From positions 12,739-76,738 of the forward strand of contig JAHIYH010000031.1 in the NCBI GenBank assembly GCA_018814875.1: 64,000 nt of DNA, read 5' to 3'. The stretch is from Patescibacteria group bacterium (lineage in GTDB: Bacteria; Patescibacteriota; Gracilibacteria; Peribacterales; Peribacteraceae). Under the pieces are notes generated by a model that saw only the letters and a list, made by a program, of their open reading frames with translations, had not been told where the DNA came from and ran no database searches. The position numbers and the translations under genes were made by a program. Below, piece by piece: positions 24,805-58,813 of the stretch (position 1 is its first letter; every line of letters starts with the position of its first letter).

Positions 24805-25926
24805 ATGCGAATTGCAATCTTTTCTCCAACCATCGATCCAAAGGACGGATATGGAAACATAACCTTCGAACTTTGTACTCATTTAAAATCACTTGGCATA
24901 GATTTAACTCTATTTCTACCTGTGTCACAGAAGAAGATTGCAAACGATATGGATCTGCCATTTCCAATTAGATTCAAACTTCCTGAATATATTTTCAGAT
25001 TACATCAGCCCAAGGCGCTCAAGTATTGGAAAAAGATAGATGTATCTGAATTTGATTTAGTTCACAGTTTATTTGCATTTCCTTATTGTCTAATTGCGGC
25101 CAGATCAGCCAAGAAATATAAGAAGCCATTCATCATGGGGGCTCAGGGGACACATGGTGTACGTCCTCTTGTATATTTTCCCGAAAAGATCTTTCTTAAG
25201 AAGTGTTACAAGCAAGCAAAGGCAATTACAGTGCCGAGTAAATTCACAAAAGATATGATAGAAAAATATTCTGGCAAAACTTATCCAATAGAAGTAATTC
25301 ATAATGGAGTTCACTTTGATCGTTTTCAAAAACAAGTAGATGTGCAGTCACTTCGCAATAAATACCAAGGGAAAACTGTATTACTTACAGTTGGGGGGCT
25401 TTGGGGTCGTAAAGGACATGACATTGTTCTTAAAGCAATAAGCCAAATAGTAAGCGGTCGTCCCGACATTCATTACATAATGGTTGGGGATGGAAACGGA
25501 CGAGCTCAATTAGAAGAGTTGGTTGATCGATTAAATATAAAAGATCACGTGGAGTTTGCAGGTAGGCAAATGGGAGATGATCTGGTCAGATACTTCCAGG
25601 CTTGTGATATTTATGTGCATACTCCAAAGATAGTTGATCTGAAGTTCGAAGGCTTTGGGATTGTATATCTTGAAGCGAGCGCATGTGGAAAGCCAATTGT
25701 TGCGACGGATGCAGGTGGAATAAGGGATGCAGTATTGGACGGAGAAACAGGTTTAATAGCCTCCGATGGTGACATTGATCAGGTTTCAAAATATATCATT
25801 ACTCTTTGTTCAGATATCGAATTACGTCATAAATTAGGTGAATCAGGACGTGTATATGCACAGAAAAACAGTTGGTCTTCTATTGCCGAAAAGTTTAAGG
25901 ATCTCTATCGTGCGATTCATGTCTAG
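24805..25926 (+). CDS. Glycosyltransferase family 4
   Basis: IHNGV, RKGHD, EGFGIVYLEASACGKP, GETGL. Confidence 0.92.
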   Translation: MRIAIFSPTIDPKDGYGNITFELCTHLKSLGIDLTLFLPVSQKKIANDMDLPFPIRFKLPEYIFRLHQPKALKYWKKIDVSEFDLVHSLFAFPYCLIAARSAKKYKKPFIMGAQGTHGVRPLVYFPEKIFLKKCYKQAKAITVPSKFTKDMIEKYSGKTYPIEVIHNGVHFDRFQKQVDVQSLRNKYQGKTVLLTVGGLWGRKGHDIVLKAISQIVSGRPDIHYIMVGDGNGRAQLEELVDRLNIKDHVEFAGRQMGDDLVRYFQACDIYVHTPKIVDLKFEGFGIVYLEASACGKPIVATDAGGIRDAVLDGETGLIASDGDIDQVSKYIITLCSDIELRHKLGESGRVYAQKNSWSSIAEKFKDLYRAIHV

Positions 25927-26959
25927 GATGCTTATTACAGGAGGTGCAGGCTTCATCGGGGTTAACGCTTCTGAGTATTTTTTGAAGAAAGGTTGGGAAG
26001 TAGTAATTTTCGATAACTTTTCGCGTGATGGAACGGATATAAATCGCAAGTTTCTGGAAGATAATTTCTCAGATGATCTTAAAATAGTAATTGGAGATGT
26101 TCGAACAGATCAGGACAAGCTAAACGAGCTTTGTGAGGAGTGTGATGTCGTATTACATTTGGCAGCGCAGGTCGCAGTTACAACTTCTGTTATAGATCCA
26201 CGTGAAGACTTCGAGATTAATGCAGGCGGAACATTTAATGTTCTAGAGGCGGTAAGACAATCATCCAAAAAACCAATATTGCTCTATGCATCAACGAATA
26301 AAGTCTATGGAGGATTAGATAATGTTGAGGTTAAAGAAGAAGAGAATCGTTATGCATTTGCAGGATTGCTGGACGGCGTGAGCGAGACACAACTGCTAGA
26401 CTTCCACTCTCCTTATGGATGTTCTAAAGGTGCAGCTGATCAATACGTTCGTGATTATTCACGTCTTTATAATCTAAAGACTGTAGTTCTTAGGCAGTCG
26501 TGCATTTATGGGCCACATCAAATGGGAGTTGAGGATCAAGGATGGGTTGCATGGTTCATGATTGCGGCGCTCTACGGAAGGCCGGTTACAATTTACGGGA
26601 ATGGAAAGCAGGTTCGCGACCTTTTGTTCGTAGATGATCTTATTAGGTGCTACGACCTGTGTATTGGGAATATAGATAAGATATCCGGACAGGTTTATAA
26701 CATTGGAGGAGGTTCGCAAAACACACTTTCTTTGCTCGAGTTCCTAAAGCTACTTAAATATGAAATGGATATGGATATTAATTATTCATTCGGTGGTGTA
26801 AGGCCAGGAGATCAGCCAATATTTGTAAGTGATAACTCTAAATTTGGATCTGCAACCGCTTGGAGTGCGAACACGGATGTAAGCACAGGTATTAGTAAGC
26901 TTCTTGATTGGCTCAAAGAGAATAAGGAAGTCCTTAATTCGATTTATGGAGAAAAATAA
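25919..26959 (+). CDS. NAD-dependent epimerase, CDP-paratose 2-epimerase (RfbE/Tyv)-like
   Basis: TGGAGFIG, HLAAQVAVTTS, STNKVYG, SPYGCSKGAADQY, RQSCIYG, DQGWVAW. Confidence 0.85.
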   Translation: MSRMLITGGAGFIGVNASEYFLKKGWEVVIFDNFSRDGTDINRKFLEDNFSDDLKIVIGDVRTDQDKLNELCEECDVVLHLAAQVAVTTSVIDPREDFEINAGGTFNVLEAVRQSSKKPILLYASTNKVYGGLDNVEVKEEENRYAFAGLLDGVSETQLLDFHSPYGCSKGAADQYVRDYSRLYNLKTVVLRQSCIYGPHQMGVEDQGWVAWFMIAALYGRPVTIYGNGKQVRDLLFVDDLIRCYDLCIGNIDKISGQVYNIGGGSQNTLSLLEFLKLLKYEMDMDINYSFGGVRPGDQPIFVSDNSKFGSATAWSANTDVSTGISKLLDWLKENKEVLNSIYGEK

Positions 26960-26960
26960 G

Positions 26961-27033
26961 AAAGTCGAAAAGTCGAAAAGTCGTAATGTCCTAAAGTGAA
27001 GTGGACTTTTCGACATTTTGACATTTCGACCTT
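26961..27033. repeat. Inverted tandem array, 8-bp unit GTCGAAAA / TTTTCGAC
   Basis: aaagtcgaaaagtcgaaaagtcgtaatgtc ... gacttttcgacattttgacatttcgacc, starting just after the stop of the upstream gene. Confidence 0.9.
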
Positions 27034-27058
27034 ATTTGGATTAGGCTACCTCGTGCTT

Positions 27059-27787
27059 ATGCCTATAAAAGACGCCAGCGTTTCTGTTGTCATGCCTTCT
27101 TATAACGAGAAGGAGAACATTGTAGAGGCAATTAATCGCATCGAATCTACTTTGGGTAGCAGTCTTTTGGAAATCATCATTGTAGATGACAATAGTCCGG
27201 ATAGAACATGGGAGATTGTAAATAATCTTGGCAATCCGCGTTGCAGAGCAATTCGTAGAATAGATAAGCGAGGTCTTGCATCAGCTTTAGCAGACGGAAC
27301 ACAAGCAGCAAAGGGCGATATAATCGTTTGGCTCGATTGTGATCTGGGAATTCCTCCGGAAGACATTCAAAAACTGGTAGAACAATTGGATGAATATGAA
27401 GTAGCAGTTGGGTCCCGATATGTTCTGGGAGGTATGGATACCCGTCATAAATTCAGAGCATTCCTAAGTTTAGTTTTCAACTTTTACACAAGGATGATTT
27501 TGGGGAGAAATTTTTGGGATTGGACATCTGGATTTGCTGCCGCTCGTAAAGAGGTAATGCAAAAGGTGCCTTTGTCCTCGGATGGATTTGGAGAATACTT
27601 TGTAGAGTGGGTGTATGGATGCACAAAAAAGAAATTCAAAATGATAGAAGTGCCATACAGATATGGTCTAAGGAAAGGTGGAGAATCCAAGACAGATGGC
27701 AGTATTCTGGTATTTATTAGATTGGCATTTTCCTATGCAACCAGAGTTTTAGCTATTAGGATGAGGCGCAGTCCCAAATCCCAATGA
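27059..27787 (+). CDS. Glycosyltransferase family 2 (polyprenol-phosphate sugar synthase-like)
   Basis: PSYNEKEN, VDDNSPDRT, LDCD, GSRY, DWTSGF. Confidence 0.9.
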   Translation: MPIKDASVSVVMPSYNEKENIVEAINRIESTLGSSLLEIIIVDDNSPDRTWEIVNNLGNPRCRAIRRIDKRGLASALADGTQAAKGDIIVWLDCDLGIPPEDIQKLVEQLDEYEVAVGSRYVLGGMDTRHKFRAFLSLVFNFYTRMILGRNFWDWTSGFAAARKEVMQKVPLSSDGFGEYFVEWVYGCTKKKFKMIEVPYRYGLRKGGESKTDGSILVFIRLAFSYATRVLAIRMRRSPKSQ

Positions 27788-29046
27788 GCACAATAGCTAT
27801 GCCAGCAAAGGGAGAAACTTATACAACTATTGAGCGGTGCAGAGTTTGTGGTTCATCAGATATTAGTGATTTATATAGCATTGGGGATCTATACATTTCA
27901 AATTTCCCAGAAAAATCAGATGATGGAATAAAGGCACCACTAGAAATGGTGATGTGTGAGAATTGCTCGTTGGTACAACTAAGAGATACAGCTCCACAGG
28001 AATTAATGTATGCAAGATTCTATTGGTATCGTTCTGGCGTAACGCAAACAATGCGCTATGCACTAAGAGACATCACTAAAAGTATCGAGGATAGAATCGA
28101 ACTAAATCCCGGTGACGTAGTTTTAGATATCGGCTCCAATGATGGAACGATGCTTAGAACTTTCGAAAAGGAGGGAATAATTAAAGTTGGAGTAGAGCCA
28201 GCATCAAATCTTGCAGAGGAGGGAGCAAAAGGAATCGATTACTTCATCAACGATTTTTGGAAGTACGAAAGCTACATGGATATAGTCGGAAAAAAAGCAA
28301 AAGTAATTACCGCTATCGGAATGTTCTACGACATGGAGGATCCAAATGAATTTATTCGTGATGCAGCGTTGGCATTAGAAGATGATGGAATATTTGTTGC
28401 GCAGCTTATGTGCCTAAAGAACATGTTGGATACAAATGATGTAGGGAACATCTGTCATGAACATCTAGAGTTCTATTCACTAGTTTCTTTGGAATACTTG
28501 TTTGATAAAAACGGATTCGAGATTATTGATATAGATCACAACGAAGTTAATGGAGGAAGCTACAGGGTCTTTGCGGGGCTTAAGGGCGGTAATCCTCCTA
28601 AAGTAGAAGGTGCGTCAGCAAGGATCCAAAAATATCGCGAGACGGAAGCGACTCTGGAATCAAAAGAAGCGCACATGGAGTTCTTTGCACGAATCGAGGA
28701 GAACAAAAAGAAGTGCGTTGATTTCATTAAGCAAGAAGTTACAAATGGAAAGAGCGTTTGGATTTACGGAGCCTCTACAAAAGGAAATACAATACTTCAG
28801 TACTATGGATTGGATCACACATTGATCGAAGGAGCTTCCGAACGAAGCCCGGAAAAATGGGGTAAGTGCACTGTTGGCACAGGTATTCCGATTGTGTCAG
28901 AGGAGGAAGCGCGCAAGGCCCAGCCAGATTATTTTCTGGTCTTGCCGTATGCATTTTTCGATGAGTTTTATAAGAGGGAAGAAGAGTGGAGAAATAAAGG
29001 TGGAAAGTTTATAGTGCCATTACCCCAATTTCGCATCGTCTCATGA
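27784..29046 (+). CDS. NDP-sugar C-methyltransferase family (Zn-binding, SAM-dependent)
   Basis: CRVC...CENC zinc site, DIGSNDG, ICHEH, YGASTKGNT, GGKFIVPLP. Confidence 0.85.
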   Translation: MSTIAMPAKGETYTTIERCRVCGSSDISDLYSIGDLYISNFPEKSDDGIKAPLEMVMCENCSLVQLRDTAPQELMYARFYWYRSGVTQTMRYALRDITKSIEDRIELNPGDVVLDIGSNDGTMLRTFEKEGIIKVGVEPASNLAEEGAKGIDYFINDFWKYESYMDIVGKKAKVITAIGMFYDMEDPNEFIRDAALALEDDGIFVAQLMCLKNMLDTNDVGNICHEHLEFYSLVSLEYLFDKNGFEIIDIDHNEVNGGSYRVFAGLKGGNPPKVEGASARIQKYRETEATLESKEAHMEFFARIEENKKKCVDFIKQEVTNGKSVWIYGASTKGNTILQYYGLDHTLIEGASERSPEKWGKCTVGTGIPIVSEEEARKAQPDYFLVLPYAFFDEFYKREEEWRNKGGKFIVPLPQFRIVS

Positions 29047-29909
29047 AGAATAAAACATATTTTTTTGTTAAGCTCCGTAGAGCACTGGCTCCGATTATCC
29101 GTGAAATGCTTGAACACTGCGGGCCTTTGCGTTTTTTTAGTGTAAAAATGATGTCTTGGTACTTAAAGCCGGTTGTCCAATGGGATGGACACACCGTATT
29201 TGTGGACACTTCGGATTTTGGTCTGTCATTCGAGTTGGAAAGCACAGGAGAGTATGAGGTTGCATCTATGGAGTACTGCAAAAATTTTCTAAAACCAGGT
29301 ATGGTGTTTGTTGATGTTGGTGCGAATATTGGACTTTTTACTCTCATGGCAGCCAGGCAGGTCGGTCCAACTGGGCATGTCTATTCCTTTGAGCCTGGAG
29401 CAACCAATTGTGTCCTAATGCGTAAGAATGTTGAGCATAATGGGTACAATAACGTAACCATAATTCAGAAGGCTGTTCTAGATCACAGTGGCAGTTGTAC
29501 CTTGTTTAAGTCGGGGTTTAACACAGCGGATCACCGAACATATTGCGTTTCTAAGGGAAGGAAGCAGACAACAATAGATTGTGTTTCGCTGGACGATTAC
29601 TTTTCGCCGGATATACACATCGACATGATCAAGATGGACATTGAGGGAGTTGAAGAAGTTGCGATTCGCGGAATGGATCGTATTCTTGCTACAAAGAAGC
29701 CCTTGCAGTTCATTGTGGAATGCTGGCCTTCTGTTCTTAAGAAGGTAGGTACAGATCCATTCAAACTCTTTGCATCTCTGGAGCAGAGAGGGTTTAAGCT
29801 CTCAGTAATTGATGACGCATCGCGCGATATTACTCCTATGGATTCTGTATCTGCAGTTGAGGAGTGTAGGCAAAAAGAAGTTGCAAACATTCTCTGCATC
29901 CTAAGATAA
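29043..29909 (+). CDS. FkbM family methyltransferase
   Basis: DVGANIG, SFEP, LDDY, IKMDIEGVE. Confidence 0.9.
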   Translation: MKNKTYFFVKLRRALAPIIREMLEHCGPLRFFSVKMMSWYLKPVVQWDGHTVFVDTSDFGLSFELESTGEYEVASMEYCKNFLKPGMVFVDVGANIGLFTLMAARQVGPTGHVYSFEPGATNCVLMRKNVEHNGYNNVTIIQKAVLDHSGSCTLFKSGFNTADHRTYCVSKGRKQTTIDCVSLDDYFSPDIHIDMIKMDIEGVEEVAIRGMDRILATKKPLQFIVECWPSVLKKVGTDPFKLFASLEQRGFKLSVIDDASRDITPMDSVSAVEECRQKEVANILCILR

Positions 29910-30103
29910 CTGTGCCTTATAAACTTGATCTTATTTTACCCGCTTTTTTGGAATATTTTTGGCATCAGTATAGGAATTTATGCATCTAGTGGAATAGAGG
30001 TATCGCCATGGCGGGTCTGGTTGGTGTGTTGCAGTGGCGAATTGGCAAGTTTTTTTTGGTGTTAGCTGGCAGAGCTTCGCAGTATTCCTGTATTCTCTCG
30101 CAT

Positions 30104-31075
30104 ATGGAACCTAAGCGTGCACTTATTCTTGGAATTACAGGACAAGATGGAAGTTACCTTGCTGAGGTGCTTCTAGAAAAAGATTACGAAGTTCACGGAC
30201 TGATCAGAAGGTCTGCCACAGGCAACACCTGCAATATCGACCACTTTATAGATGACATAGAACTGCACAGAGGAGATCTATCGGATGCACCATCACTTTA
30301 CAGCGCAATCAACACAGTTCGTCCTGATGAGATCTATAACGAAGCAGATCAAGATCATGCTGGTTGGAGTTATAGCGTCGTTGATTATGCTTCGGATATC
30401 ACAGGCGCAGCTCCTGGTAGAATCTTGGAGATCATCAGACAGATTGATACCAAGATAAAATTCTTCCAGCCACTTACATCCAATATGTTTGGTCAGGCAG
30501 AGGAGTGCCCACAGAATGAAGAAACCAAACTTATGCCGCAGAGTCCTTACGCGTGTGCAAAGGCTTATGCTTTTATGCTCACACGTTATTACAGGCAGGT
30601 GCATAACATCTTTGCTTCTACTGCTATCTTCTTTAATCACGAATCTCCACGTCGCACTCCCTCGTATGTTTCGCGAAAGATTACACAGGCTGCAGTTAGA
30701 ATTTCACTTGGATTACAAGATAAACTTTATTTGGGTGATATAGAACCAGAGATAGATTTTGGATACGCAAAGGAATACATGGAGACGGCATGGAAAATAA
30801 TGCAACAAGACAAGCCCGATGACTTTGTAATTGGAACAGGCGAAGCACATTCAGTTAGAGAGCTTATGGAAGCAGCGTTTAAAGCAGTTGGTCTGAATGC
30901 AGATGATTATGTAGAGATTGATCCAAAACTCATCCGTCCAGGCAAAACAAGTACTCTAATTGCAGATTATTCCAAGGCAAATAAAGTATTTGGATACGAA
31001 CCAAAAGTTAAATATGAGGATTTGGTGAAGATCATGATTGAGCATGATAAACGAATTGAGACGAGGACGGTCTAA
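30104..31075 (+). CDS. Divergent GDP-mannose 4,6-dehydratase-like SDR
   Basis: [25 protein letters not shown], but atypical YNEADQDH and QPLTSN motifs. Confidence 0.8.
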   Translation: MEPKRALILGITGQDGSYLAEVLLEKDYEVHGLIRRSATGNTCNIDHFIDDIELHRGDLSDAPSLYSAINTVRPDEIYNEADQDHAGWSYSVVDYASDITGAAPGRILEIIRQIDTKIKFFQPLTSNMFGQAEECPQNEETKLMPQSPYACAKAYAFMLTRYYRQVHNIFASTAIFFNHESPRRTPSYVSRKITQAAVRISLGLQDKLYLGDIEPEIDFGYAKEYMETAWKIMQQDKPDDFVIGTGEAHSVRELMEAAFKAVGLNADDYVEIDPKLIRPGKTSTLIADYSKANKVFGYEPKVKYEDLVKIMIEHDKRIETRTV

Positions 31076-31172
31076 ACAATCAACAATCAACAGTCAACAC
31101 GCGCCTGCGGCGCTCTCAACAATCAACAATCAACAATCAACACGGGTGCTAAGCATCCTCTTAACAATCAAC
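31073..31172. repeat. Left arm of the four-helix-bundle cassette: 7-bp TCAACAA array with embedded GC hairpin
   Basis: taaacaatcaacaatcaacagtcaacacgc-gcctgcggc-gctctcaacaatcaacaatcaacaatcaacac; begins at the upstream TAA. Confidence 0.92.
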
Positions 31173-31209
31173 TTGTTTTGTATGAATGTATTTGGTAGAT
31201 TCGCGTGCT

Positions 31210-31575
31210 ATGTCGGCTTTTAGATTCAAACAGTTCAAAGTTTATAAAGACGCGAAAGAATTTCGAAGGCAAGTTTCGCGTCTTGTAATCAAGCTAACGG
31301 ATAAGCGAGCGTATGATCTTTCCGCTCAAATAAGAAGAGCAAGTCTTTCGATTGTTCTCAATATTGCGGAAGGATCAGCAAAGAAATCAGATATTGATTT
31401 TGCGAGGTTTTTAGAAATATCATCAGGATCTGTTAATGAAGTTGTTGCAGGATTTGATGTTGCACACGACGAAAATCTGATTTCCAGTGAAGATTTAAAT
31501 CTAATTGAAGATAAAGCAAGAGAAATTATAAATCAATTAGGAGGCTTTATAAAAAGCTTAAGAGTTAAAAGTTGA
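31210..31575 (+). CDS. Four helix bundle protein (23S rRNA IVP / Avd-like family)
   Basis: FKQFKVYKDA, LSAQIRRASLSIVLNIAEGS, FARFLEISSGSVNEV, LGGFIKSL are family hallmarks. Confidence 0.9.
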   Translation: MSAFRFKQFKVYKDAKEFRRQVSRLVIKLTDKRAYDLSAQIRRASLSIVLNIAEGSAKKSDIDFARFLEISSGSVNEVVAGFDVAHDENLISSEDLNLIEDKAREIINQLGGFIKSLRVKS

Positions 31576-31619
31576 TAGTTGATAGTTGATAGTTGATAGC
31601 GCAGCGTGTTGATTGTTAT
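31570..31619. repeat. Right arm of the four-helix-bundle cassette: 7-bp AGTTGAT array
   Basis: agttgatagttgatagttgatagttgatagcgcagcgtgttgattgttat; near reverse complement of the left arm and contains the stops of both adjacent genes. Confidence 0.92.
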
Positions 31620-32728
31620 ACCGCTACCGATTCAATAACATCACACACCCTCTCCATCTGCTCATCTGTAATAGCTAGCCCTGATGGAAGATATAGACCT
31701 CTTTCAGCAACGTATTCGGTCACAGGGAACGTTTCTTCTGTGGGATAAAGCTCACTGACCGCAGGTTGCTCGTGGCAGGGAACAAAGAATGTTCTGGTAT
31801 CAACTCCTTGCTCTTTAAGTTTGGCCGCAAACTCATCACGGCTCATGCCGAACTCATCTTCAATCAAGATTGCATACATCCAGTACACGTTTTTCGCGTA
31901 ATCTTTTGTAATGGGAGTGCGAATACCTTTGATACCTTGCAGTCTCTCTGTATAAAAATTCGCCATGTGCTCTTTTGTCTTCAAAAACTCTTCCAAGTGT
32001 TCCAGTTGCCCAAGGCCCAAGGCTGCTTGCAGATTGGTGACTCGATAGTTGTATCCGAGTTTTTCGTGGACGAATCGTTTTTGCTTTGAGTGCGACAAAT
32101 CTTTCAATGACCTGACACGTTCTGCGAGCTCATCATCATCTGTACACACCATTCCGCCTTCACCGGTTGAAATTATTTTGTTCCCGTAGAAACTAAAGGC
32201 ACTGATGTTCCCGAGTGATCCACACATTTTTCCTTTATAAGTTCCTCCATGAATTTCTGCAGCATCTTCTACTACAGAAATACCATGCTTTGCAGCAATT
32301 TCTAAAATTGGATCCATGTCGCAGCTATGTCCGTAAATGTGCACAGGCATTATTGCTTTTGTTTTTGGAGTTATTTTTTCTTCTAATTTGTTCGGATCCA
32401 TATTGTAAGTATCAGGTTCGACGTCGCAAAATACTGGTTTTGCTCCTGTGTACATAACAGCGAATACCGAGGCGATCATTGTAAAATCTGGCAGTATCAC
32501 TTCATCATCTGGGCCAACTTCAAGTGCCTCTAATGCCAAGTGGAGCGCGGTTGTTCCACTAGTAGTAAGTATCGCGTGTTTAACTCCAATTGTATTTGCA
32601 AAGGCTTCTTCAAACTTTCCTATGTAAGCACCTGCGGAAGAAATCCACCCCGTATCCAATGCATCATTTACGTACTTCTTTGCAGAAGCGGGGACAACGG
32701 GCTCGTTGACTGGTACAAAATCACTCAT
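31616..32728 (-). CDS. DegT/DnrJ aminotransferase, GDP-perosamine synthase-like
   Basis: GWISS.G, SGTTALHL, EDAAE, FSFYGNKIISTGEGG, GYNYRVTN. Confidence 0.88.
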   Translation of the reverse strand: MSDFVPVNEPVVPASAKKYVNDALDTGWISSAGAYIGKFEEAFANTIGVKHAILTTSGTTALHLALEALEVGPDDEVILPDFTMIASVFAVMYTGAKPVFCDVEPDTYNMDPNKLEEKITPKTKAIMPVHIYGHSCDMDPILEIAAKHGISVVEDAAEIHGGTYKGKMCGSLGNISAFSFYGNKIISTGEGGMVCTDDDELAERVRSLKDLSHSKQKRFVHEKLGYNYRVTNLQAALGLGQLEHLEEFLKTKEHMANFYTERLQGIKGIRTPITKDYAKNVYWMYAILIEDEFGMSRDEFAAKLKEQGVDTRTFFVPCHEQPAVSELYPTEETFPVTEYVAERGLYLPSGLAITDEQMERVCDVIESVAV

Positions 32729-32731
32729 TAC

Positions 32732-33139
32732 TTATGATTCAAGAAAGATTTTATCATTCTCTTGGTAGGGCCCTTGTTTTACTTCCATTATGCGTGATGG
32801 CTCAAGCATTTTTATAGAATGTCCTCCTTTTAAAAAGATTAAACATTGTCCTTCCTCAACAGTTTGTTCAGCCACTTTTTCCCATTCATCATTAAAAATT
32901 GTTACGAGCAGTTTTCCATTTTCAAGGATAATTAATTCTCCGATATTCTTAAGATCCAAATTGCGCGATTTATGCCTGTGAGGTTTTACTTCGTATTCCG
33001 CATCCCGCTCAAAAAATCCAACCTGCAAACTGTCGCAGTCTTCTGTTACGAATTTAACACCATTTTCTGTGTCCACATCTTGCTTAAAGATTAGGGCATA
33101 TATTTCTCCATTATGTTCTATGCGTTGGACAGCACTCAT
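32732..33139 (-). CDS. Cupin-fold protein of glycan loci
   Basis: PHRH, E, GGHS, EVKQGPY cupin motifs. Confidence 0.7.
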   Translation of the reverse strand: MSAVQRIEHNGEIYALIFKQDVDTENGVKFVTEDCDSLQVGFFERDAEYEVKPHRHKSRNLDLKNIGELIILENGKLLVTIFNDEWEKVAEQTVEEGQCLIFLKGGHSIKMLEPSRIMEVKQGPYQENDKIFLES

Positions 33140-33218
33140 GCTCCGAAGTATATGCAATTAGATATGCATTGCCATCTAATTTGAGACTATCTTCTAGATA
33201 GGATTGTTATCACCGCGT

Positions 33219-33617
33219 ATGCTCACTGGGATGTCCCGCAAATTCACGCCACATTTGTCGAAATTCATTATGTATTTTTTGAGTGGATCAACAGCTGCAT
33301 TTGCCGATATCGGTTCATATCTACTCATGTTACATATCGGAGTTTGGTATATTCTGGCCTCCGTAATTAGCGGAATAATCGGATTCTTCACTGCATTTTT
33401 ACTGCATAAATACATCGTATTCCAAAAGAAATCTAAGTTCCTAAAGCACTTAAGGCGTTATTTTATGGTAGATATGGTCAATTTGGTTATTATTACAGTA
33501 TTTTTGTATGCTCTGGTGGATTTCTGGGGAATTGATCCGGCAATCGCTAAATTTGTTGCCTTGACCCCTGTTGTTCTATGGAATTTTTTCATATATCGGT
33601 TTGTAGTATACGTATAG
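33219..33617 (+). CDS. GtrA family flippase-like protein
   Basis: Four TM segments, FLLHKYIVF, AKF..WNF...RFVVY; start uncertain. Confidence 0.82.
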   Translation: MLTGMSRKFTPHLSKFIMYFLSGSTAAFADIGSYLLMLHIGVWYILASVISGIIGFFTAFLLHKYIVFQKKSKFLKHLRRYFMVDMVNLVIITVFLYALVDFWGIDPAIAKFVALTPVVLWNFFIYRFVVYV

Positions 33618-33641
33618 TTGCTTTAGCCTGACTTACACACG

Positions 33642-34721
33642 ATGAATAAAAAAGCTTTGGTCACCGGCATAACAGGTCAGGATGGCTCATATCTGGCTGA
33701 GCTTTTGATGGAGAAGGGATACGAGGTGCACGGTATTGTAAGGCGGGTCTCCGAGCTACAAAGAGATCGAATCGACCACTTGTTTCCAGACAACTGGAAC
33801 TTTAAAGGAAACATTCAACTTCATTACGGAGATCTAGCCGACAGCAGTTCTCTTTTAAGAATTCTTATGAAGGTACAGCCGGATGAAATTTATAATCTTG
33901 CTGCACAATCGCATGTAGGAATCAGTTTCGATATTCCGGAATATACGGGAGACGTAACTGGAGTAGGTGTTACCAGACTTCTTGAACTTGTAAGAAGCAT
34001 AGATCTGCCAGCACGTTTTTATCAGGCAAGTAGCAGTGAGCTTTACGGAAAAGTCTCGGAGTCTCCTCAAACAGAAAAGACAGCATTCTATCCTCGTAGT
34101 CCTTACGCGAGTGCAAAGGCATATGCGTTTTATCTAACTCGCAACTACCGTGAAAGTTATAATATGTATGCAGTAAATGGAATCTTGTTTAATCACGAAT
34201 CTCCCAGAAGAGGAAGAAACTTTGTTACGCGTAAGATTACATGGAGCTTGGCATCAATTGCCGCAGGTAAGCGGAGGGCAATTCCTTTGGGTAATATGGA
34301 TGCAGAGCGAGACTGGGGATATGCAAAGGAATATGTAGAGGGCATGTGGCGTATGTTGCAGCAGGATGAACCGGATGACTATATTCTTGCAACAGGCCGA
34401 ACAGAATCCGTCAGGTCTTTTCTTGAGCTATGTTTGAATATTGGAGGATTCACCTTCGAAAGGCAGGGAGAAGGATTAGACGAAAAATACATTGATACAA
34501 ATTCTGGAAGAATATTGGTAGAAGTTGATCCGTATTACTACAGACCTGCAGAAGTAGATACCCTTATGGGCGATGCATCTAAAGCGAAAAATGAATTAGG
34601 TTGGGAGTCAAAAACAACACTAGAAGATTTGGCAACAATTATGATGGAGTCGGATTTCCGACAATTTGGATTGGAGCTTCCTACAAAAAAGAGTCAGGTT
34701 CTCACGTCTGCTTCTTTCTAA
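33642..34721 (+). CDS. gmd: GDP-mannose 4,6-dehydratase
   Basis: [55 protein letters not shown]. Confidence 0.95.
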
Positions 34722-35987
34722 TTAAAGCGCCAGATACTTGTAGCCCTCTTTCTCGATGTCTTCTTTACGTGCTATCGACTTAAGATCATAAAGTAAGCCT
34801 CCTTCCTTCAGGCTTGATAGAATTTTCTGAGGGAAGCTATCTAAGTATGTACTGTGTGGGACTAGCAATAGGACGGCATCATAAAGACCATTATCCAGTT
34901 TCCCAGCTGTATGGCCCATATTTTCAATTTCCTTCTCGTTCAAATATGGATCGTGAACATCCACTGAACATCCTGCCTCTTCTAGTTTTTGAATCACATT
35001 TCCAGACTTGCTGTTGCGCATGTCAGGTACGTTCTCTTTGAATGTTAGCCCTAACACAAGAACGCGTTTTCCATTTGGATTTCCAAGTGCATTTGAGACA
35101 CTCTTAGCAACAAATTCTCCCATGCCATCATTCACACTGCGGCCGGCCGCAATAACCTGTGTATCCATGCCGAGTTGCTTGGCTTTTTCTACCAAATAAT
35201 AAGGATCCACTCCGATGCAGTGCCCACCGACGAGTCCGGGTTGGAATGCGATAAAGTTCCATTTGGTTTTTGCTGCAGAAAAGACATCTTTGGAAGCGAT
35301 ATCCATCTCGTTACACATCATGGCGATTTCGTTTACAAAGGCTATGTTCAGATCACGTTGGGCATTCTCAATAGCTTTAGCCATCTCTGCGACCTTGATA
35401 GAAGGTGCGCGATGAATGCCTGCTTCTACAATAGAGTCATAAAGTTTACAGAGTGTGTCTGTAGTTTTCTCGTCTTGTCCTGAAACAATTTTAACAATTT
35501 TAGTAACTGTATGTTCTTTGTCACCTGGATTGATACGCTCAGGTGAGTAACCAAGAGTAAAACCTTTTCCACACTTCAATCCAGATTCTTTTTCCAAGAT
35601 GGGTCCACATACTTCCTCCGTTGTCCCTGGATAAACTGTCGATTCATATACAACGATTGCACCTTCCTTCAAATTTTCTCCAACTGCTTTTGTCCCAGCT
35701 TTCAAAATTGTGATGTCTGGTTTTTTGTCTTTATCAATCGGTGTGGGTAGAGCGACGATCACTATGTCAGCTTCTTTGAGAGACTTCGGATCCGTACTAA
35801 ATTCGATTGAGGATTCTTTGAGCTGCTCTTCAGTTAGTTCGTCTGTACTGTCCTTGCAATCTTCTAATTCGGCAATTCGTGTTCCATTCACATCATATCC
35901 GATAGTTCTATATCCTTTCTTTGCAAAGGCGTGAGCGAGCGGGAGACCAACATAGCCTAGGCCGACGATTGCTATTACCTGATTCAT
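34722..35987 (-). CDS. UDP-N-acetylhexosamine 6-dehydrogenase (WbpO/TviB-like)
   Basis: GLGYVGLP, YESTVYPG, YSPERINPGD, ENAQRDLNIA, GLVGGHCIGVDPYYL, FKENVPD.RNS. Confidence 0.92.
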   Translation of the reverse strand: MNQVIAIVGLGYVGLPLAHAFAKKGYRTIGYDVNGTRIAELEDCKDSTDELTEEQLKESSIEFSTDPKSLKEADIVIVALPTPIDKDKKPDITILKAGTKAVGENLKEGAIVVYESTVYPGTTEEVCGPILEKESGLKCGKGFTLGYSPERINPGDKEHTVTKIVKIVSGQDEKTTDTLCKLYDSIVEAGIHRAPSIKVAEMAKAIENAQRDLNIAFVNEIAMMCNEMDIASKDVFSAAKTKWNFIAFQPGLVGGHCIGVDPYYLVEKAKQLGMDTQVIAAGRSVNDGMGEFVAKSVSNALGNPNGKRVLVLGLTFKENVPDMRNSKSGNVIQKLEEAGCSVDVHDPYLNEKEIENMGHTAGKLDNGLYDAVLLLVPHSTYLDSFPQKILSSLKEGGLLYDLKSIARKEDIEKEGYKYLAL

Positions 35988-36034
35988 TGTGTTGATAGTG
36001 TAACCTCCTATGAAGTGTGGTGGTAGAAAAAGTC

Positions 36035-36090
36035 GCTGATTAGCTTATTAGTTGATTAGAGTAAGCCAATTAGCCAATAAGCCGCAAGCT
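36035..36090. repeat. Inverted tandem array, 8-bp unit GCTTATTA / CAATAAGC (degenerate)
   Basis: gctgattagcttattagttgatta ... taagccaattagccaataagcc. Confidence 0.75.
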
Positions 36091-36119
36091 GCTAGTATCT
36101 GGTATAGTCTTTTCAATCT

Positions 36120-36641
36120 ATGAAACATTTCTTTGTTGGCCGCACAAAATCGGTCCATCCGCCTTCACTTCATCCGCCGACAAATCTATGTACGACAAGA
36201 AAGCTACGGCGGATTCCGCGTGCAATATTCAAGTCTATTGCATTGATATTTCACAGACGTAAGTCTCTTGAGCTCCACATTCAATTCCTTAGATACTTCT
36301 TTGTAGGTGGAACTTCTTCTGTCTTAGATCTTCTGGTATTTGCAGTATTAGTTTCTCAGTACGATGTTCACTATCTTCTTGCAGCCTTTTTCTCGTACAT
36401 GGCTGGCCTACTTTGGAATTACATTCTTTGTGTAGCTTGGGTATTTGAGAGTAAGCATAAGCGCATACTGGAATTTGTAATGATCTTCCTTATCGCTATG
36501 GGGGGGCTAATGTGGACAGAACTTCTGATGTGGATTTTTGTGGAGTTTGTGGACGTGATGCCGATAATTGCGAAGATAATTGTGCTTTGGATTGTGTTGT
36601 TTTGGAACTTCGGAATGCGCAAGGTTTATGTATTTCATTGA
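36120..36641 (+). CDS. GtrA family protein
   Basis: QFLRYFFVGG, WNY....WVF, AKII...WNFGMRK.YVF. Confidence 0.85.
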   Translation: MKHFFVGRTKSVHPPSLHPPTNLCTTRKLRRIPRAIFKSIALIFHRRKSLELHIQFLRYFFVGGTSSVLDLLVFAVLVSQYDVHYLLAAFFSYMAGLLWNYILCVAWVFESKHKRILEFVMIFLIAMGGLMWTELLMWIFVEFVDVMPIIAKIIVLWIVLFWNFGMRKVYVFH

Positions 36642-36650
36642 AATAATTAT

Positions 36651-36724
36651 CCGTTATTTCGTTAATTCGTTATTTCGTTAACCCGTATGAGAAATTACGA
36701 AATAACTAAGTAACGAATTAACGT
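36651..36724. repeat. Inverted tandem array, 8-bp unit TTCGTTAT / ATAACGAA
   Basis: cgttatttcgttaattcgttatttcgtta ... ttacgaaataactaagtaacgaattaacg. Confidence 0.9.
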
Positions 36725-36747
36725 TTATGATAGAGTTCTTTAGACTT

Positions 36748-38193
36748 ATGGATAACTCTAAAACATCAGATGTACTCGTATTGGGGGCCGGTCCTGCTGG
36801 CATGGCGGCTGCGCTGGAGCTTTCTAGGAGAGGGAAGCGTGTTACAGTAATCGAGAAAGATTCTCAGGTAGGAGGATTGGCAAAGACATATATATTCTCC
36901 GAGCCAGAAGGAGTGTTTAGAACAGATAACGGGCCACATCGTTTCTTCAGCAAAAATAAGTATCTCTACGACATGATCGGAGATTTGCTTGGTGAAAAAT
37001 GGACTCAGGTCCCACGTCTTACGCGCTTCTTTGTTGGTGGAAAATTTTATTTCTATCCAGTTCGATTTAAAAATGTTCTAGGACAGATGGGTTTTATCAA
37101 AGCGTTTAGAGTTTTGTTTGATTATGTGATTGAACATATACGTGCACGTATTAAGCCTCGCAAAATGAATTCATTTGAAGATTTTGCTGTATCACGCTTT
37201 GGTCGCACGCTTGCAGAGTTTAATATGATCAATTACACCGAGAAGATCTGGGGAATTCCGGCGAGCGAGATCAATAAAGATTGGGCATCGCAACGTATTG
37301 CTGGATTAAGTTTGTTTTCTGCGATCAAGAAAATGATTTTTAAAAAAGGAGGACCTAAGTCGCTTGTTGATACGTTCTATTACCCAAGTCTTGGAGCCGG
37401 ACTCGTCTATGAGGGAATGAAGAAGAAAATTGAAGAGAATGGCGGTCAGGTTTTGCTCAATGCAGAGCCAATTTCTGTGAAGCACGAGAATGGTCGTGCA
37501 ACTCAGGTAGAAGTTAAAACTCAGCAAGGAACTAAGTTATTCTCTCCACAAGCAGTCATAAGTTCGATTCCTATCTCGCGCGAGATAGAGCTATTTGATC
37601 CTGTTGTTCCAAACGAAGTCCGTGATGCTGCGGGTAAACTGAGATTTCGTGCGCAGGTCTACCTCTTCCTCACGATTGATAAAGAAAAAGTAACAGATGA
37701 TAACTGGGTGTACTTTCCGGATAAGGAAGTTCCATTCGGACGAATTTCAGAAATGAAAAACTTTAGTAAAGAGATGAGTCCGTCGGATAAGACATCGCTC
37801 TTCGTTGAGTTTTTCTGTTTCGAAGGCGACGAGATCTGGAATGCGAACAAAGATCAGCTTTTTGATATGACAATGGAGTGGTTGGAGAAACTTAAGTTCC
37901 TAAAAAAAGAGGAAGTTTTGAATATTCATTACATCAAGAAGCCGAACGCTTATCCTCTCTACGATTTAGAATACAAAGAGCGCGTATCAACTGTTCTTAA
38001 TTGGATGGACTCGTTTGAAAACTTCTTTGCGATTGGTAGGCCAGGAAGATTCCGTTACACGAATCAGGATCACTCGCTCGAGATGGGAATACTAGCAGCG
38101 CGAAGTGTGTTGGAAGGGAAGCGGTACGAAGTTGATTCTGTAGGATCTGGCAAAGAGTACTTTGAGCAGGGGTATATACCAAATGAAAAATGA
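36748..38193 (+). CDS. FAD-dependent oxidoreductase of glycan loci (protoporphyrinogen oxidase / Glf-related)
   Basis: GAGPAG, IEK..VGG, DNGPHRFF, YTEKIWG, GRPGRFRYTNQDHS. Confidence 0.8.
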   Translation: MDNSKTSDVLVLGAGPAGMAAALELSRRGKRVTVIEKDSQVGGLAKTYIFSEPEGVFRTDNGPHRFFSKNKYLYDMIGDLLGEKWTQVPRLTRFFVGGKFYFYPVRFKNVLGQMGFIKAFRVLFDYVIEHIRARIKPRKMNSFEDFAVSRFGRTLAEFNMINYTEKIWGIPASEINKDWASQRIAGLSLFSAIKKMIFKKGGPKSLVDTFYYPSLGAGLVYEGMKKKIEENGGQVLLNAEPISVKHENGRATQVEVKTQQGTKLFSPQAVISSIPISREIELFDPVVPNEVRDAAGKLRFRAQVYLFLTIDKEKVTDDNWVYFPDKEVPFGRISEMKNFSKEMSPSDKTSLFVEFFCFEGDEIWNANKDQLFDMTMEWLEKLKFLKKEEVLNIHYIKKPNAYPLYDLEYKERVSTVLNWMDSFENFFAIGRPGRFRYTNQDHSLEMGILAARSVLEGKRYEVDSVGSGKEYFEQGYIPNEK

Positions 38194-38212
38194 ATAATGA
38201 AAAATGAATAAT
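38181..38212. repeat. Single-arm tandem array, 7-bp AATGAA(A/T), overlapping the upstream TGA stop
   Basis: aaatgaaaaatgaataatgaaaaatgaataat. Confidence 0.8.
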
Positions 38213-38230
38213 TACTGATGGCTGTGCTAT

Positions 38231-38500
38231 TTATAGTAATCGCAATACCTGTTTTACTAATGGATCTTGTGATAGAGAAAGTCTATAGCTCACAAAAAGC
38301 CCTCTCTTTTTCATTTTAACAATGCCTGCGAGTGCGAGTAGCCGAAGATGTTTTGATGTTGCTTGCAGTTTTAGACCTATTTCTTCCGCAATTTCGTTCA
38401 CTGTTGCATGTTGGTTCTCTTACAAGAAGAGGAGTATGTGTAGTCGCTTCTGACTTGCAAGAATCTTAAGGAGACGCTCTTGAGATTGTAAATCTTTCAT
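38231..38500 (-). pseudogene. ArsR/SmtB family transcriptional regulator with an internal TAA
   Basis: Manual translation MKDLQSQERLLKILASQKRLHILLFL*ENQHATVNEIAEEIGLKLQATSKHLRLLALAGIVKMKKRGLFVSYRL...; stop at 38420-38422; absent from the ORF track. Confidence 0.85.
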
Positions 38501-38528
38501 AAGTACTCTCTCTTGAGCATAATATTAG

Positions 38529-38552
38529 TAAACTAGTTGCGCAACTAGTTTA
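38529..38552. promoter_or_regulatory. Perfect 24-bp palindrome, candidate ArsR operator
   Basis: TAAACTAGTTGC|GCAACTAGTTTA, 28 bp upstream of the ArsR start, inside a larger tcttgagca...tgctcaaga inverted repeat. Confidence 0.6.
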
Positions 38553-38709
38553 TTACTTTGCTCAAGAAATACTTAACCGCATACCATTTCTAAGTTCCTA
38601 CTGCCGATAGTTCTACTGCCGATTAATACTTAAAGAGCATATGCAGTAATGTATTTCTCTACTCTTTATGGGTTCCTCAAAAGCTCAGGATTCACTATGA
38701 TTCAACTAT

Positions 38710-40353: not shown

Positions 40354-40370
40354 CAGTTAACAATTAACAA
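40346..40370. repeat. Tandem array, 7-bp TTAACA(G/A), supplying the upstream TAA
   Basis: acagttaacagttaacaattaacaa. Confidence 0.8.
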
Positions 40371-40383
40371 AATTACTAACAAG

Positions 40384-41289
40384 CTAATTGCTATTGTACC
40401 ATTCAACAGTCTTCTTAATTCCCTCATCAAATGGCGTCAGTGGCTCGTAACCAAGCAGCTTCTTCGCCTTAGAGATATCTGCGATGTACTGAATTACTTC
40501 ACCAGGACGATTGTCTTGGATGTCTATTTCGGAATCGCTTCCATGAAGCTCTTTCAGGACTTCTGCGAGACGAACAATAGTAGTTGCATCCCCAAATGCC
40601 AGATTGATTGTCTCGTTCTTTGCATCATCAAATTTTTCTACTGCAAGTATCAGGCCATTTACTGTGTCGTCGATATATGTAAAGTCGAGACACTTATCTT
40701 TGCCAAATATAGTCATTGTCTCATTCGCTTTTGCTTGTCTGATAAAGAGGGGGATTACGCGATCAGAATCGTCATACATTCCGTAGACATTAGAGAGCCG
40801 GAACACGATTCCATCAATTCCATAACAACGCCAGTAGGCTTTCATTAGTGCCTCGCCTCCAATCTTGCTAGCTGTATATGCACTCTCGCAGTTATCTACA
40901 CGCATCATGTCTTCGGTATGTGGGTCATTTGTATCATTACCATATGTTTCTCTTGATGATGTGAAGATGAAACGTTTGATATTATTCTTCCGTGCAAATT
41001 CAAGAGTGTTGTAGGTAGAAATGAAATTATCTCGAGCCATATCCGGTTCTTTTACAAGTTCATAAACACGCGCGTTGGCAGCCAAATGTATGATTATATC
41101 TATGTCTTTGGGCAGTTTGTCGAGTTGAGATTCGTCTCTCAGGTCAACAATTGTCGTTATTTGGTCGATATTACTCTGCCACTTATTTGGCTTCCAATCT
41201 GCACCAATAACCTCGTAGCCCTTTTCTATGAGCTTTTCGCATAAGCGTGTGCCAATCGTTCCAGAGGAACCAGTAACGAGGATTTTCAT
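40384..41289 (-). CDS. NAD-dependent epimerase/dehydratase
   Basis: TGSSGTIG, HLAANA, YTASK, NVYG, DFTYIDD. Confidence 0.9.
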   Translation of the reverse strand: MKILVTGSSGTIGTRLCEKLIEKGYEVIGADWKPNKWQSNIDQITTIVDLRDESQLDKLPKDIDIIIHLAANARVYELVKEPDMARDNFISTYNTLEFARKNNIKRFIFTSSRETYGNDTNDPHTEDMMRVDNCESAYTASKIGGEALMKAYWRCYGIDGIVFRLSNVYGMYDDSDRVIPLFIRQAKANETMTIFGKDKCLDFTYIDDTVNGLILAVEKFDDAKNETINLAFGDATTIVRLAEVLKELHGSDSEIDIQDNRPGEVIQYIADISKAKKLLGYEPLTPFDEGIKKTVEWYNSN

Positions 41290-58138: not shown

Positions 58139-58250
58139 TGACACGTTCGCCTACGGCGAACTTTCAACACGCTTCGCTTTCAACAATCAACTTCAAAGTT
58201 GATGGTTGAAAGCGACCCCACTTTACCGGGGAGCGTGTTGATTGTTATCA
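58136..58250. repeat. Gene-less copy of the four-helix-bundle cassette arms
   Basis: tcaacacgc-ttc-gctttcaacaatcaac ... gttgatggttgaaagcg...agcgtgttgattgttat; the 17-mer 58232-58248 is identical to 31603-31619. Confidence 0.88.
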
Positions 58251-58276: not shown

Positions 58277-58813
58277 ATGTCTATAACTACCAAGATTGGC
58301 GATGGTGGTAAATCAGGGCTCCTAAGTGGGGAGCGTGTTTCTAAGGGTTCTCTTCGCTTGGAAGCATTTGGGACTGTGGATGAACTTAATGCAGTTTTGG
58401 GAGTTGTTCTTGTCGAGGAAGAGATTCCCGTAGAAGTCAAAGAGTACTTAGTGCAAGTGCAGAAGCTTCTTTTTAGAGTTGGGACGGATTTGGCGACTCC
58501 ATTAAAAGGGACAAGTGGAATCGTCAGAATTTCTCAGGAAGATATCTATCAAATTGAAAAGTGGATTGATGAACTTGAGCAGACGCTTCCTGTTCTCAAA
58601 CACTTCATTCTTCCAAGTGGATCGCGACTGAGTTCGTTGATACATCAGGCTCGCACAGTATGTCGTCGTGCGGAGCGATGCACTGTTCGATTATCTGAAA
58701 AAGAAAAGATAAATGATCACGTTCAAATTTATCTGAATCGTTTAAGCGACTACCTCTTTCTAGCCGCACGAGAGGCAAATCTTGGAGAGGGAGTTGATGA
58801 GTCGGAGGTGTGA
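58277..58813 (+). CDS. Cob(I)alamin adenosyltransferase, PduO type
   Basis: TTKIGDGG.S, GTVDELNA, FILP, RTVCRRAER, YLNRLSDYLF. Confidence 0.93.
   Translation: MSITTKIGDGGKSGLLSGERVSKGSLRLEAFGTVDELNAVLGVVLVEEEIPVEVKEYLVQVQKLLFRVGTDLATPLKGTSGIVRISQEDIYQIEKWIDELEQTLPVLKHFILPSGSRLSSLIHQARTVCRRAERCTVRLSEKEKINDHVQIYLNRLSDYLFLAAREANLGEGVDESEV

Follow-up and report, generated by a model that had tools for sequence, protein, structure and literature searches.

A four-helix-bundle gene between complementary heptamer-repeat arms in a Patescibacteria genome: a candidate intervening-sequence-type cassette outside ribosomal RNA

We analysed a stretch of 64,000 nucleotides (the window) from a Patescibacteria group bacterium of the family Peribacteraceae (GCA_018814875.1, contig JAHIYH010000031.1), in which a gene for a small four-helix-bundle (4HB) protein, of the family known from 23S rRNA intervening sequences (IVS), lies at 31210-31575 between two arms of tandem heptamers that are complementary to each other. 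Our main conclusion is that the gene and its arms form one IVS-type cassette, situated outside rRNA and probably cut by RNase III; we put the probability of this interpretation at roughly 55%. The window is C23:12739-76738 of the host genome, designated G000 (C-numbers are contigs of G000), which has 1.42 Mb in 70 contigs, with 42.8% GC and a completeness of 98.8%.

The cassette and its two neighbours are laid out as follows.

30008..31075, plus strand: GDP-mannose 4,6-dehydratase (gmd) gene (PF16363, E 1.3e-96, and the list of open reading frames (ORFs)); the true start is perhaps downstream of 30008
31075..31099, plus strand: outer block of the left arm, AACAATC x3.6, ending in tcaacacgc (Tandem Repeats Finder, TRF); pairs with 31604-31617
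31100..31113, plus strand: GC-rich 14-mer cgcgcctgcggcgc, which splits the left arm and is preceded by tcaacACGC (direct reading)
31116..31142, plus strand: inner block of the left arm, TCAACAA x3.9, 100% matches (TRF); predicted pairing with 31570-31599
31143..31209, plus strand: spacer from the 5' arm to the start codon, with an extra partial unit ctcttaacaatcaac at 31158-31172
31210..31575, plus strand: 4HB gene, 121 aa, the cargo in the loop (PF05635, TIGR02436, PDB 2gsc)
31570..31599, plus strand: inner block of the right arm, AGTTGAT x4.3, 100% matches (TRF), overlapping the last codons of the 4HB gene
31600..31617, plus strand: outer part of the right arm, a GC interruption cgcagc followed by GCGTGTTGATTGTT (inverted pairs, direct reading)
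31616..32728, minus strand: DegT/DnrJ/EryC1-family aminotransferase gene, the convergent neighbour (PF01041, E 6.4e-127)

The 4HB gene's own TGA (31573-31575) lies within the first AGTTGAT unit of the right arm, which continues after 31599 with cgcaGCGTGTtgattgtt. Two inverted pairs connect the arms: 31132-31144 with 31605-31617, which is exact over 13 nt (100%), and 31089-31102 with 31604-31617, which covers 14 nt at 93%. A preliminary description of this DNA had reported (TCAACAA)n and (AGTTGAT)n arms with GC interruptions around an Avd/23S-IVP-like gene, and this is borne out by the sequence, TRF and the inverted pairs. It had also placed the stop codons of both neighbours in the outer ends of the arms, which is the case: the gmd stop (TAA, 31073-31075) directly adjoins the first heptamer of the left arm, and the DegT stop (31616-31618, minus strand) is inside the outer right arm.

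When the RNA of 31066-31625 was folded, the arms paired across the 4HB gene at -166 kcal/mol (z -6.97; 0 of 100 shuffles as good). The predicted long-range stem joins approximately 31089-31143 to 31570-31617 and encloses the 4HB ORF, while the cgcgcctgcggcgc interruption is mostly unpaired or bulged. Judged by sequence, the gene is a member of the PF05635/TIGR02436 family with a fold related to that of solved members. The protein matches PF05635 with E 2.2e-27 and 95.8 bits (cut-off 33.8), covering positions 1 to 105 of the 106 in the profile; its match to TIGR02436, 'four helix bundle protein', has E 1.6e-27 and 95.9 bits (cut-off 24). Sequence matches to solved structures were to the Xanthomonas protein PDB 2gsc (E 1.9e-13, residues 8-118) and to PDB 2rld (E 0.0049), both entries having 5 chains. 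A PADLOC search with the protein gave no match, and neither PADLOC nor Pfam provided a nucleic-acid-binding annotation for it.

Enclosure by complementary arms is close to a rule for this family. It was scored by local alignment of the upstream flank against the reverse complement of the downstream flank, with a threshold of at least 12; RNA duplex energy was dropped as a flank statistic, as with 200-nt flanks it gave no discrimination (control median -58.5). The genome contains 21 PF05635 genes (in 22 rows, as one broken copy is split over two), and 20 of them were testable, the copy at a contig end being left out. The threshold was reached by 19 of the 20, compared to 33 of 1305 other crude gene calls (Fisher p ~1e-27), with median scores of 19.5 and 8 respectively, and on these counts a chance arrangement was rejected. 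The repeat units differ between cassettes (for example TTAGCTTCA, GGACTTA, AAGGTAA and GGGCTA), and both arms are complementary regardless.

The preliminary description had suggested that other family members be checked for such arms, and they are present well outside this genome. Scores of at least 12 were obtained at 21 of 27 testable loci in 19 other genomes of the class (a 28th locus is at a contig end), and at 17 of 20 loci across the Patescibacteria (20 genomes, about 17 families), where the three loci below the threshold still have inverted arrays visible by eye. Among 10 tblastn records of cyanobacterial plasmid homologues, six were examined, and all six passed the threshold, with scores of 14-31. 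These are from plasmids of Nostoc, Pseudanabaena, Geminocystis, two Calothrix and Picosynechococcus, and their 4HB genes are found in tight junctions: nrdB/nrdA, cas6/cas4, cas10/cmr3 and toxin-secretion genes.

Other small genes were also seen between inverted arms. The GxxExxY (TIGR04256) genes at C36:1923-2312 and C56:984-1361 have inverted tandem-repeat arms with a score of 17 each, and a third, at C26:2048-2389, has a flank score of 10; this looks like a second small-gene family in the same hairpin housing. Further small cargo is located at C3:4032-4478, C68:18379-18699, C12:46614-46919 and C47:3305-3734, and consists of one ORF resembling a DUF559-type endonuclease (by eye) and of three coiled-coil ORFs (about 95-106 aa), among which two are clear homologues.

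Gene and arms are inherited together. The 4HB paralogues in the genome are old, with a median identity of 26% (18 aligned copies, three truncated ones omitted). The nearest paralogue of the window gene (C23:164210-164521, 72% identity) has arms of the same family (caacacgcttcgctttcaactatcaacaatcaac...), and the next nearest (59% identity) has TTAACAA-type units, which are one base off. Over 16 cassettes, with 5' arms compared in gene orientation, arm similarity follows protein identity (Mantel rho 0.20, permutation p 0.02), and the nearest paralogue stands at or above the 0.93 percentile of arm similarity in 12 of the 16. The suggestion that the unit varies with the protein clade therefore holds. 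The arms also change together. In the orthologous cassettes 3' of one lexA-like gene, the units are CGTATTT in this genome and in G003, GGAATTT in G007 and CGTATGT in G015, with both arms changed, and therefore complementarity has been kept during sequence turnover.

Presence and absence of cassettes at orthologous junctions was followed by mapping the flanks of 12 cassettes of the same genus onto this genome, omitting a thirteenth at a contig start. Five of the 12 share their junction with a 4HB gene here (L113, L122, L127, L128 and L114), and several cassettes are common to different genera among the class relatives. Because these five are syntenic, we consider the cassettes to be mostly long-resident and not visibly jumping. 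A further six of the 12, representing four junctions, have no 4HB gene at the junction here, and the remaining one was not assigned. What this genome has at the four junctions is a gene-less hairpin at that between the peptidyl-prolyl isomerase (PPIase) gene and gltX, another at pyrG-pyrD, a solo array of similar unit at pyrB-pyrC (in each case with a full cassette in a congener), and, at pyrH-frr (C12:4640-4900), an insert of some 110 nt that a 20-nt inverted repeat, ttagcttctagggaacctctga..., encloses, where three congeners have the cassette. The pyrH-frr insert includes a hairpin of its own and could be either a small RNA or another kind of element. The repeat units of full and empty alleles differ, and the end points are not precise, so that of the earlier proposal of precise gain and loss the presence/absence variation stands but the precision does not.

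At the window's own gmd/DegT junction no clean empty site was obtained. Only one of seven congeners (G003, DegT 90% identical) has a close DegT orthologue, and its DegT/gmd junction (L133, on C41 of G003) lacks arms and is occupied by an unrelated ORF, about 280 aa long, that has no counterpart in the window. The glycan-gene cluster of the window is in general poorly conserved in the genus, as the single close DegT orthologue among the seven congeners indicates.

Insertions of the same build are present in the rRNA of this genome. The 23S rRNA gene on C68 matches the bacterial large subunit (LSU) model with large insertions. Two of these, about 200 nt each, are related to one another: the first is at model position 583, the second in the hairpin loop at position 1218. 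Both have AATTGAC/GTCAATT heptamer arms around a small central hairpin, and no ORF. In the usual helix numbering, position 583 belongs to the helix-25 region and position 1218 to helix 45, the classical IVS sites. The genome also has a gene for RNase III (rnc; TIGR02191, 230.5 bits, cut-off 166). The preliminary description had left the choice between a mobile and an RNA-processing cassette; the RNA-processing half is now the better supported, with the same hairpin type occurring in 23S helices 25 and 45. The 23S match itself (on C68; locus L023, 3512-6660) ends at model position 2044 of 2925 while the contig runs on for 1.9 kb; there are at least four insertions, at model positions of approximately 160, 283, 583 and 1218, and the 3' part of the gene may lie behind a large further insertion.

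The window cassette resembles the rRNA IVS of the Leptospira and Coxiella types in that a PF05635-family protein is encoded in the loop and the inverted flanks form a predicted stem around the ORF. PMC4990558 describes a helix-45 IVS of Coxiella that carries an S23p ORF and was shown experimentally to be excised by RNase III; there too tandem heptamers adjoin the ORF, with two to three GACAGAT units upstream of it and the 5' cut at the first repeat. According to PMC11270868, 23S_rRNA_IVP ORFs have been recorded in rRNA insertions of candidate phyla radiation (CPR) bacteria. The differences are that the window cassette lies between protein-coding genes (gmd and DegT) rather than in 23S helix 9, 25 or 45, that there are 21 copies in 1.42 Mb, and that the arms are long tandem arrays whose units are specific to the locus.

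The anatomy of the cassettes was measured on the 17 intact copies of the genome; of the four others, one is at a contig end and three are truncated or broken. The median start of the 3' arm is -5 nt, counted from the end of the stop codon (-25 to +16 in the 16 copies with arms), and in the window cassette it begins 5 nt ahead of that end. The 5' arm ends at a median of 53 nt upstream of the ATG (-2 to 159 in the copies with arms), and the best-aligned arm segment has a median of 30 nt. No Shine-Dalgarno-like sequence was found upstream of the 4HB start codons in the cassettes, including the spacer 31143-31209 of the window. In 15 of 20 cassettes the gene upstream points the same way as the 4HB gene, which is not distinctive against a background of 61%, and the downstream gene is convergent in 12 of 21. 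A model of a purely promoter-less hitch-hiker was dropped, since five cassettes are divergent.

Around the window cassette itself, a consensus scan gave no plus-strand promoter-like site in the spacer 31143-31209, and the only one that it reported on this strand is inside the 4HB ORF (31394-31423); over 30900-31800 there were two promoter-like sites compared to 2.2 expected and no terminators, which makes the scan uninformative. No target-site duplication can be seen by eye: the two edges (...ggtctaa|acaatc... and ...ttgttat|accgct...) have no direct repeat in common. An independent biofilm metagenome (X2) contains an identical copy of the cassette up to 31599. The contigs of four DNA runs over 25000-44900 break at arrays and include no indel or joint that bears on the cassette, and are thus uninformative on its excision or copy-number variation.

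The preliminary description paired the cassette with a gene-less twin at 58.1 kb, the surroundings of which are as follows.

58145..58161, plus strand: small GC hairpin gttcgcc-tac-ggcgaac, just past the pheT stop (58136-58138)
58164..58241, plus strand: gene-less twin hairpin with a TCAACAA-type stem, a 4-nt loop and a side hairpin (fold; shared 16-mer)
58277..58813, plus strand: PduO-type adenosyltransferase-like gene (ORF; so named in the preliminary description), with orthologues in seven of seven congeners

The twin is real: it has a stretch of 17 nt identical to the window cassette, and its fold reaches -55.4 kcal/mol (z -10.5), which none of 200 shuffles equalled. Apart from the cassette and the twin, the exact 16-mer GCGTGTTGATTGTTAT is absent from the 1.42-Mb genome. 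It is not unique, however, because the AACAATC unit of the window family is found at at least 10 loci in the genome, and a 20-nt composite motif, CAACACGCTTCGCTTTCAAC, at 21 places (with up to 2 mismatches). The pheT-pduO junction, which it had been proposed to align, is retained in six of the seven congeners, and in all six it contains a repeat array or hairpin; the units are of four distinct kinds (AAAAAGG-type, GTTTATT, ACAATTG in three genomes, and CGGGTT), all unlike TCAACAA. On account of these junctions and of the 164 gene-less hairpins described below, the twin is an ordinary member of a large gene-less hairpin class, linked specially to the cassette only by the 16-17-mer, and it need not derive from it.

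Heptamer arrays are abundant throughout the genome. TRF found 1205 arrays of period 6-9; the 577 among them with period 7 represent 139 canonical heptamer units. The most common length of these 577 is 28-34 nt, or 4-5 units (247 arrays). Although the crude gene calls span 85% of the genome and leave 15% non-coding, 420 of the 577 are situated for the most part outside them. Of the 896 intergenic regions at least 40 nt long, 481 contain an array. Inverted array pairs within 1.5 kb number 212. In 164 of these the loop is shorter than 200 nt (gene-less repeat hairpins), and a separate group has loops of 355-530 nt, the majority containing a 4HB gene. Local hairpins occur in 34 of 184 convergent, 73 of 498 tandem and 31 of 214 divergent intergenic regions.

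In intergenic regions of the window, further local inverted pairs of 7-8-nt arrays are found at 17294-17352, 26961-27030, 36035-36083, 36652-36723, 43378-43510, 46279-46357 and 47297-47389, with units such as GTATTTC/AAATACT and AAAGTCGA/CGACTTTT. Higher-order arrays, in which a 30-nt unit of TCAACAA heptamers and a GC motif is repeated five times, occur at C36:45690-45920 and C2:7060-7340, together with nested long hairpins of -77 and -102 kcal/mol.

If gene and arms are indeed one IVS-type cassette, it would be built of a 5' arm of tandem 7-8-nt units, a variable spacer, an ORF of about 120 aa for the 4HB protein, and a complementary 3' arm at or just before the stop codon. In any transcript crossing the cassette the arms would pair as RNA to give a stem of about 30-50 bp with the ORF in its loop, and this stem would be a substrate for the RNase III of the host. 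A cut in the stem would release the 4HB message and decouple the insertion from the genes on either side, which may be what renders the cassette harmless in tight junctions and operons. Gene and arms are inherited and duplicated as one, with the arms drifting fast by slippage, in concert, so that pairing is retained, and the gene could be lost or gained while a repeat hairpin or solo array remains at the site. The twin at 58.1 kb is a gene-less member of the repeat family of the cassette.

Several points weigh against this interpretation. Inverted repeats can equally act at the DNA level, as hairpins or cruciforms. Enclosure is not exclusive to the family, as about 30 genes other than 4HB genes are also bracketed, and one 4HB copy (C41:6629-6943, score 7), the sole exception among the 20, has no arms. 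Some copies must have their own promoter inside the arms, because 5 of 20 cassettes are divergent from the upstream gene and many spacers are 50-160 nt long; their own mRNA would then lack the 5' arm, and the stem would form only in read-through transcripts. The gene-less hairpins are not enriched at convergent junctions, and no single simple role, such as termination, explains them. Finally, the authors of the Coxiella study (PMC4990558) conclude that S23p is probably not made from the excised IVS, and therefore excision need not serve expression.

The abundance of arrays in a genome goes together with the number of 4HB genes. Of 151 Patescibacteria genomes sampled, 95 have the family, and the number of copies reaches 21 in about 1 Mb. 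A blind sample was taken from 20 further Patescibacteria genomes, as two 20-kb pieces at fixed coordinates chosen without regard to 4HB positions, and the statistics were calculated on 19 of them (about 17 families, 24-40 kb each), leaving out one with 3.9 kb. The seven genomes with at least 8 copies have 2.5-10.25 arrays of period 7-8 per 10 kb, and the twelve with 0-1 copies have 0-2.25. The two ranges do not overlap (Mann-Whitney p 2e-4; Spearman 0.69, p 0.001, for 19 genomes whose kin are not fully independent), and GC content does not explain array density in the same 19 genomes (rho -0.28, p 0.25). Within family f15, 8 copies go with 10.25 arrays and 1 copy with 1.0, and within f35, 8 copies go with 2.5 arrays and 1 copy with 0.75. 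The trend is the same in 15 genomes of the class, with 0-2 arrays per 10 kb (period 7-8) where no 4HB gene was found and 3.5-9.5 at 9 or more copies, although some of the high-copy genomes were here sampled on contigs known to hold a 4HB gene. Since arrays outnumber cassette arms more than tenfold (577 period-7 arrays compared to 21 genes), the coupling is not an artefact of counting arms.

This coupling gives some ground for a different explanation, namely that the 4HB protein is a trans-acting partner of the repeats, a pentameric ring that binds tandem heptamers with approximately one unit per subunit. The substrate might be RNA, ssDNA or dsDNA; the arms would be the protein's own binding sites, for autoregulation or packaging, and the arrays elsewhere in the genome would be further sites that it protects, maintains or spreads. 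Cleavage by RNase III would be compatible with this. We think it rather unlikely. In its favour are the separation of copy number with array density, which is not driven by GC and recurs within families and in the class, the excess of arrays over genes, the most common array length, and the 5 chains of both solved homologues, to which can be added the homopentameric toroid cited for the Xanthomonas homologue in PMC4990558. The correspondence between five subunits of 7 nt and the array length is so far numerology, however, and neither PADLOC nor Pfam points to nucleic-acid binding. With 139 heptamer units and 21 paralogues there cannot be one protein per unit, the genomes compared are partly kin, and the coupling may run the other way, with hairpin-rich genomes offering more sites for landing or tolerance. 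A broader form of the idea is that the S23p/IVP 4HB proteins and the tandem heptamer arrays are two halves of one unrecognised, phylum-spanning system, in which the ring would read about five 7-nt units (30-35 nt) and maintain, spread or exploit hairpins, including those that fragment the 23S rRNA, while each 4HB gene rides in one of them. This too we think rather unlikely.

It is similarly doubtful that the unit is a mobile cassette at the DNA level, with arms that serve as terminal inverted repeats, or as ssDNA hairpins for a recombinase acting in trans (for example of Y1/RAYT type, where RAYT stands for REP-associated tyrosine transposase and REP for repetitive extragenic palindrome), and with the gene-less hairpins as derivatives resembling MITEs (miniature inverted-repeat transposable elements). 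The motifs shared by dispersed hairpin families, the joint duplication of gene and arms, the full, empty and solo-arm alleles, the different repeat families at orthologous junctions of different species, the two Y1-transposase matches in the genome, and the cyanobacterial plasmid cassettes inside operons, which resemble selfish insertions, would all fit this. However, there is no recombinase within or adjoining the cassettes, no target-site duplication can be seen where the window cassette ends, the termini are slippery arrays and are not conserved, and the independent metagenome has an identical copy with no variant. The five syntenic cassettes among 12, several of the cassettes being shared across genera, imply slow turnover, and the Y1 gene at C41:13796-14239 is flanked by a different, REP-like palindrome (gcacgcgtcccgcgtgc) and not by heptamers. 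A still simpler account, that bracketing is a by-product of placing a short gene among array-rich intergenic regions, deserves hardly any credence. Arrays in more than half of the intergenic regions and the bracketed non-4HB genes speak for it, but the arrays that flank 4HB genes complement each other rather than forming hairpins of their own, the rates are 19 in 20 and 33 in 1305 (p ~1e-27), the rule extends to cyanobacteria and across the Patescibacteria, and there is conservation both of arm polarity with respect to the gene and of the way in which the 3' arm overlaps the stop codon. We retain the IVS-type cassette as the preferred interpretation.

The cassette can be compared with several known systems. 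The 577 period-7 arrays are tandem 7-nt units, mostly intergenic and at many loci, and in this, and in being present in hundreds of copies, resemble the short tandemly repeated repetitive (STRR) arrays known from heterocystous cyanobacteria, and also the GGGAATC and GGGGAYT repeats of Xanthomonas and Nostoc; moreover, the cyanobacterial plasmid 4HB genes are flanked by arrays of this type. The difference is that the arrays here are tied to a 4HB gene, both at the level of the locus and at that of the genome. The accessible text of PMC4692102 reports 70-75 inverted heptamer pairs in Xanthomonas, capable of forming stem-loops, and does not mention a 4HB gene in connection with them, and that of PMC4679880, on the TAACTGA repeats of Beggiatoaceae, contains no mention of 4HB, 23S or IVS. 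Literature searches of full texts, with supplements and subscription journals outside their scope, yielded no paper in which 4HB/S23p genes are regularly connected with inverted tandem-repeat arms, or which ties them to genome-wide heptamer arrays; the closest are PMC4990558, with its heptamers on one side of the ORF, PMC4692102 and PMC4679880, and an earlier description of an ORF in a repeat hairpin as a rule may exist.

REP sequences and bacterial interspersed mosaic elements (BIMEs) with their RAYT genes, and MITEs, are likewise dispersed intergenic families of repeats that form hairpins, with gene-less forms, and Y1 genes are present in this genome. Unlike them, the cassettes have slippery tandem-array arms of 139 canonical heptamers, no conserved termini and, at the window cassette, no visible target duplication. 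With regard to terminal repeats, the arms are inverted and are common to the closest paralogues and to at least 10 gene-less loci, with no fixed terminus; with regard to orthologous sites, presence and absence was seen at four junctions, with imprecise end points and differing units. The Y1 gene on C41 is IS200/RAYT-like, has copies of the gcacgcgtcccgcgtgc palindrome on both sides, and appears as a REP/RAYT-like element separate from the heptamers. The cassette of an integron is a small ORF, often without a promoter, followed from its stop codon by an imperfect inverted repeat (attC) that folds as a hairpin. The cassettes measured here are similar in having a small ORF with a hairpin-forming repeat that starts at the stop codon, and differ in having arms on both sides of the ORF, no integrase and no cassette array.

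Avd, the accessory protein of diversity-generating retroelements (DGRs), belongs to the same 4HB fold family and is alike in pentameric assembly, the PDB homologues 2gsc and 2rld having 5 chains each. A reading of the window gene as part of a DGR was rejected because there is no reverse transcriptase (RT) nearby: matches to PF00078 occur only on C43 and C29. Nor was a template or variable repeat seen beside the cassette, although no search aimed at such pairs was made. The preliminary description had noted no transposase or RT, which is correct for the window but does not extend to the genome, where there are two RT and two Y1-transposase matches on other contigs. The RT genes are at C43:36936-40968 and C29:67887-69303 (E 1.2e-22 and 1.7e-18). 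Close to each is an Avd-like ORF (114-115 aa) missed by PF05635 at E <=0.01, and the two loci are probably DGRs. A normal arm-bracketed 4HB cassette (C43:41957-42334) lies about 1.2 kb from one of them.

To our knowledge, the 23S IVS protein family has no known function and has been an orphan since the 1990s, and we know of no explanation for the heptamer arrays, STRR and their relatives, that have been noted for decades in cyanobacterial and other genomes. Three results, namely the enclosure by arms in CPR bacteria and cyanobacteria, the hairpins at 23S IVS sites, and the coupling of copy number to array density, bring the two together as one testable system. A rule for annotation is gained, that of the ORF in a repeat hairpin. 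The cassettes also suggest a strategy by which selfish insertions in very small genomes may limit the harm that they do, through excision at the RNA level by an enzyme of the host. If protein and arrays should prove to be two halves of one system, this would provide a function for an orphan protein family, and a cause for the STRR-type repeats of cyanobacteria and for IVS elements.

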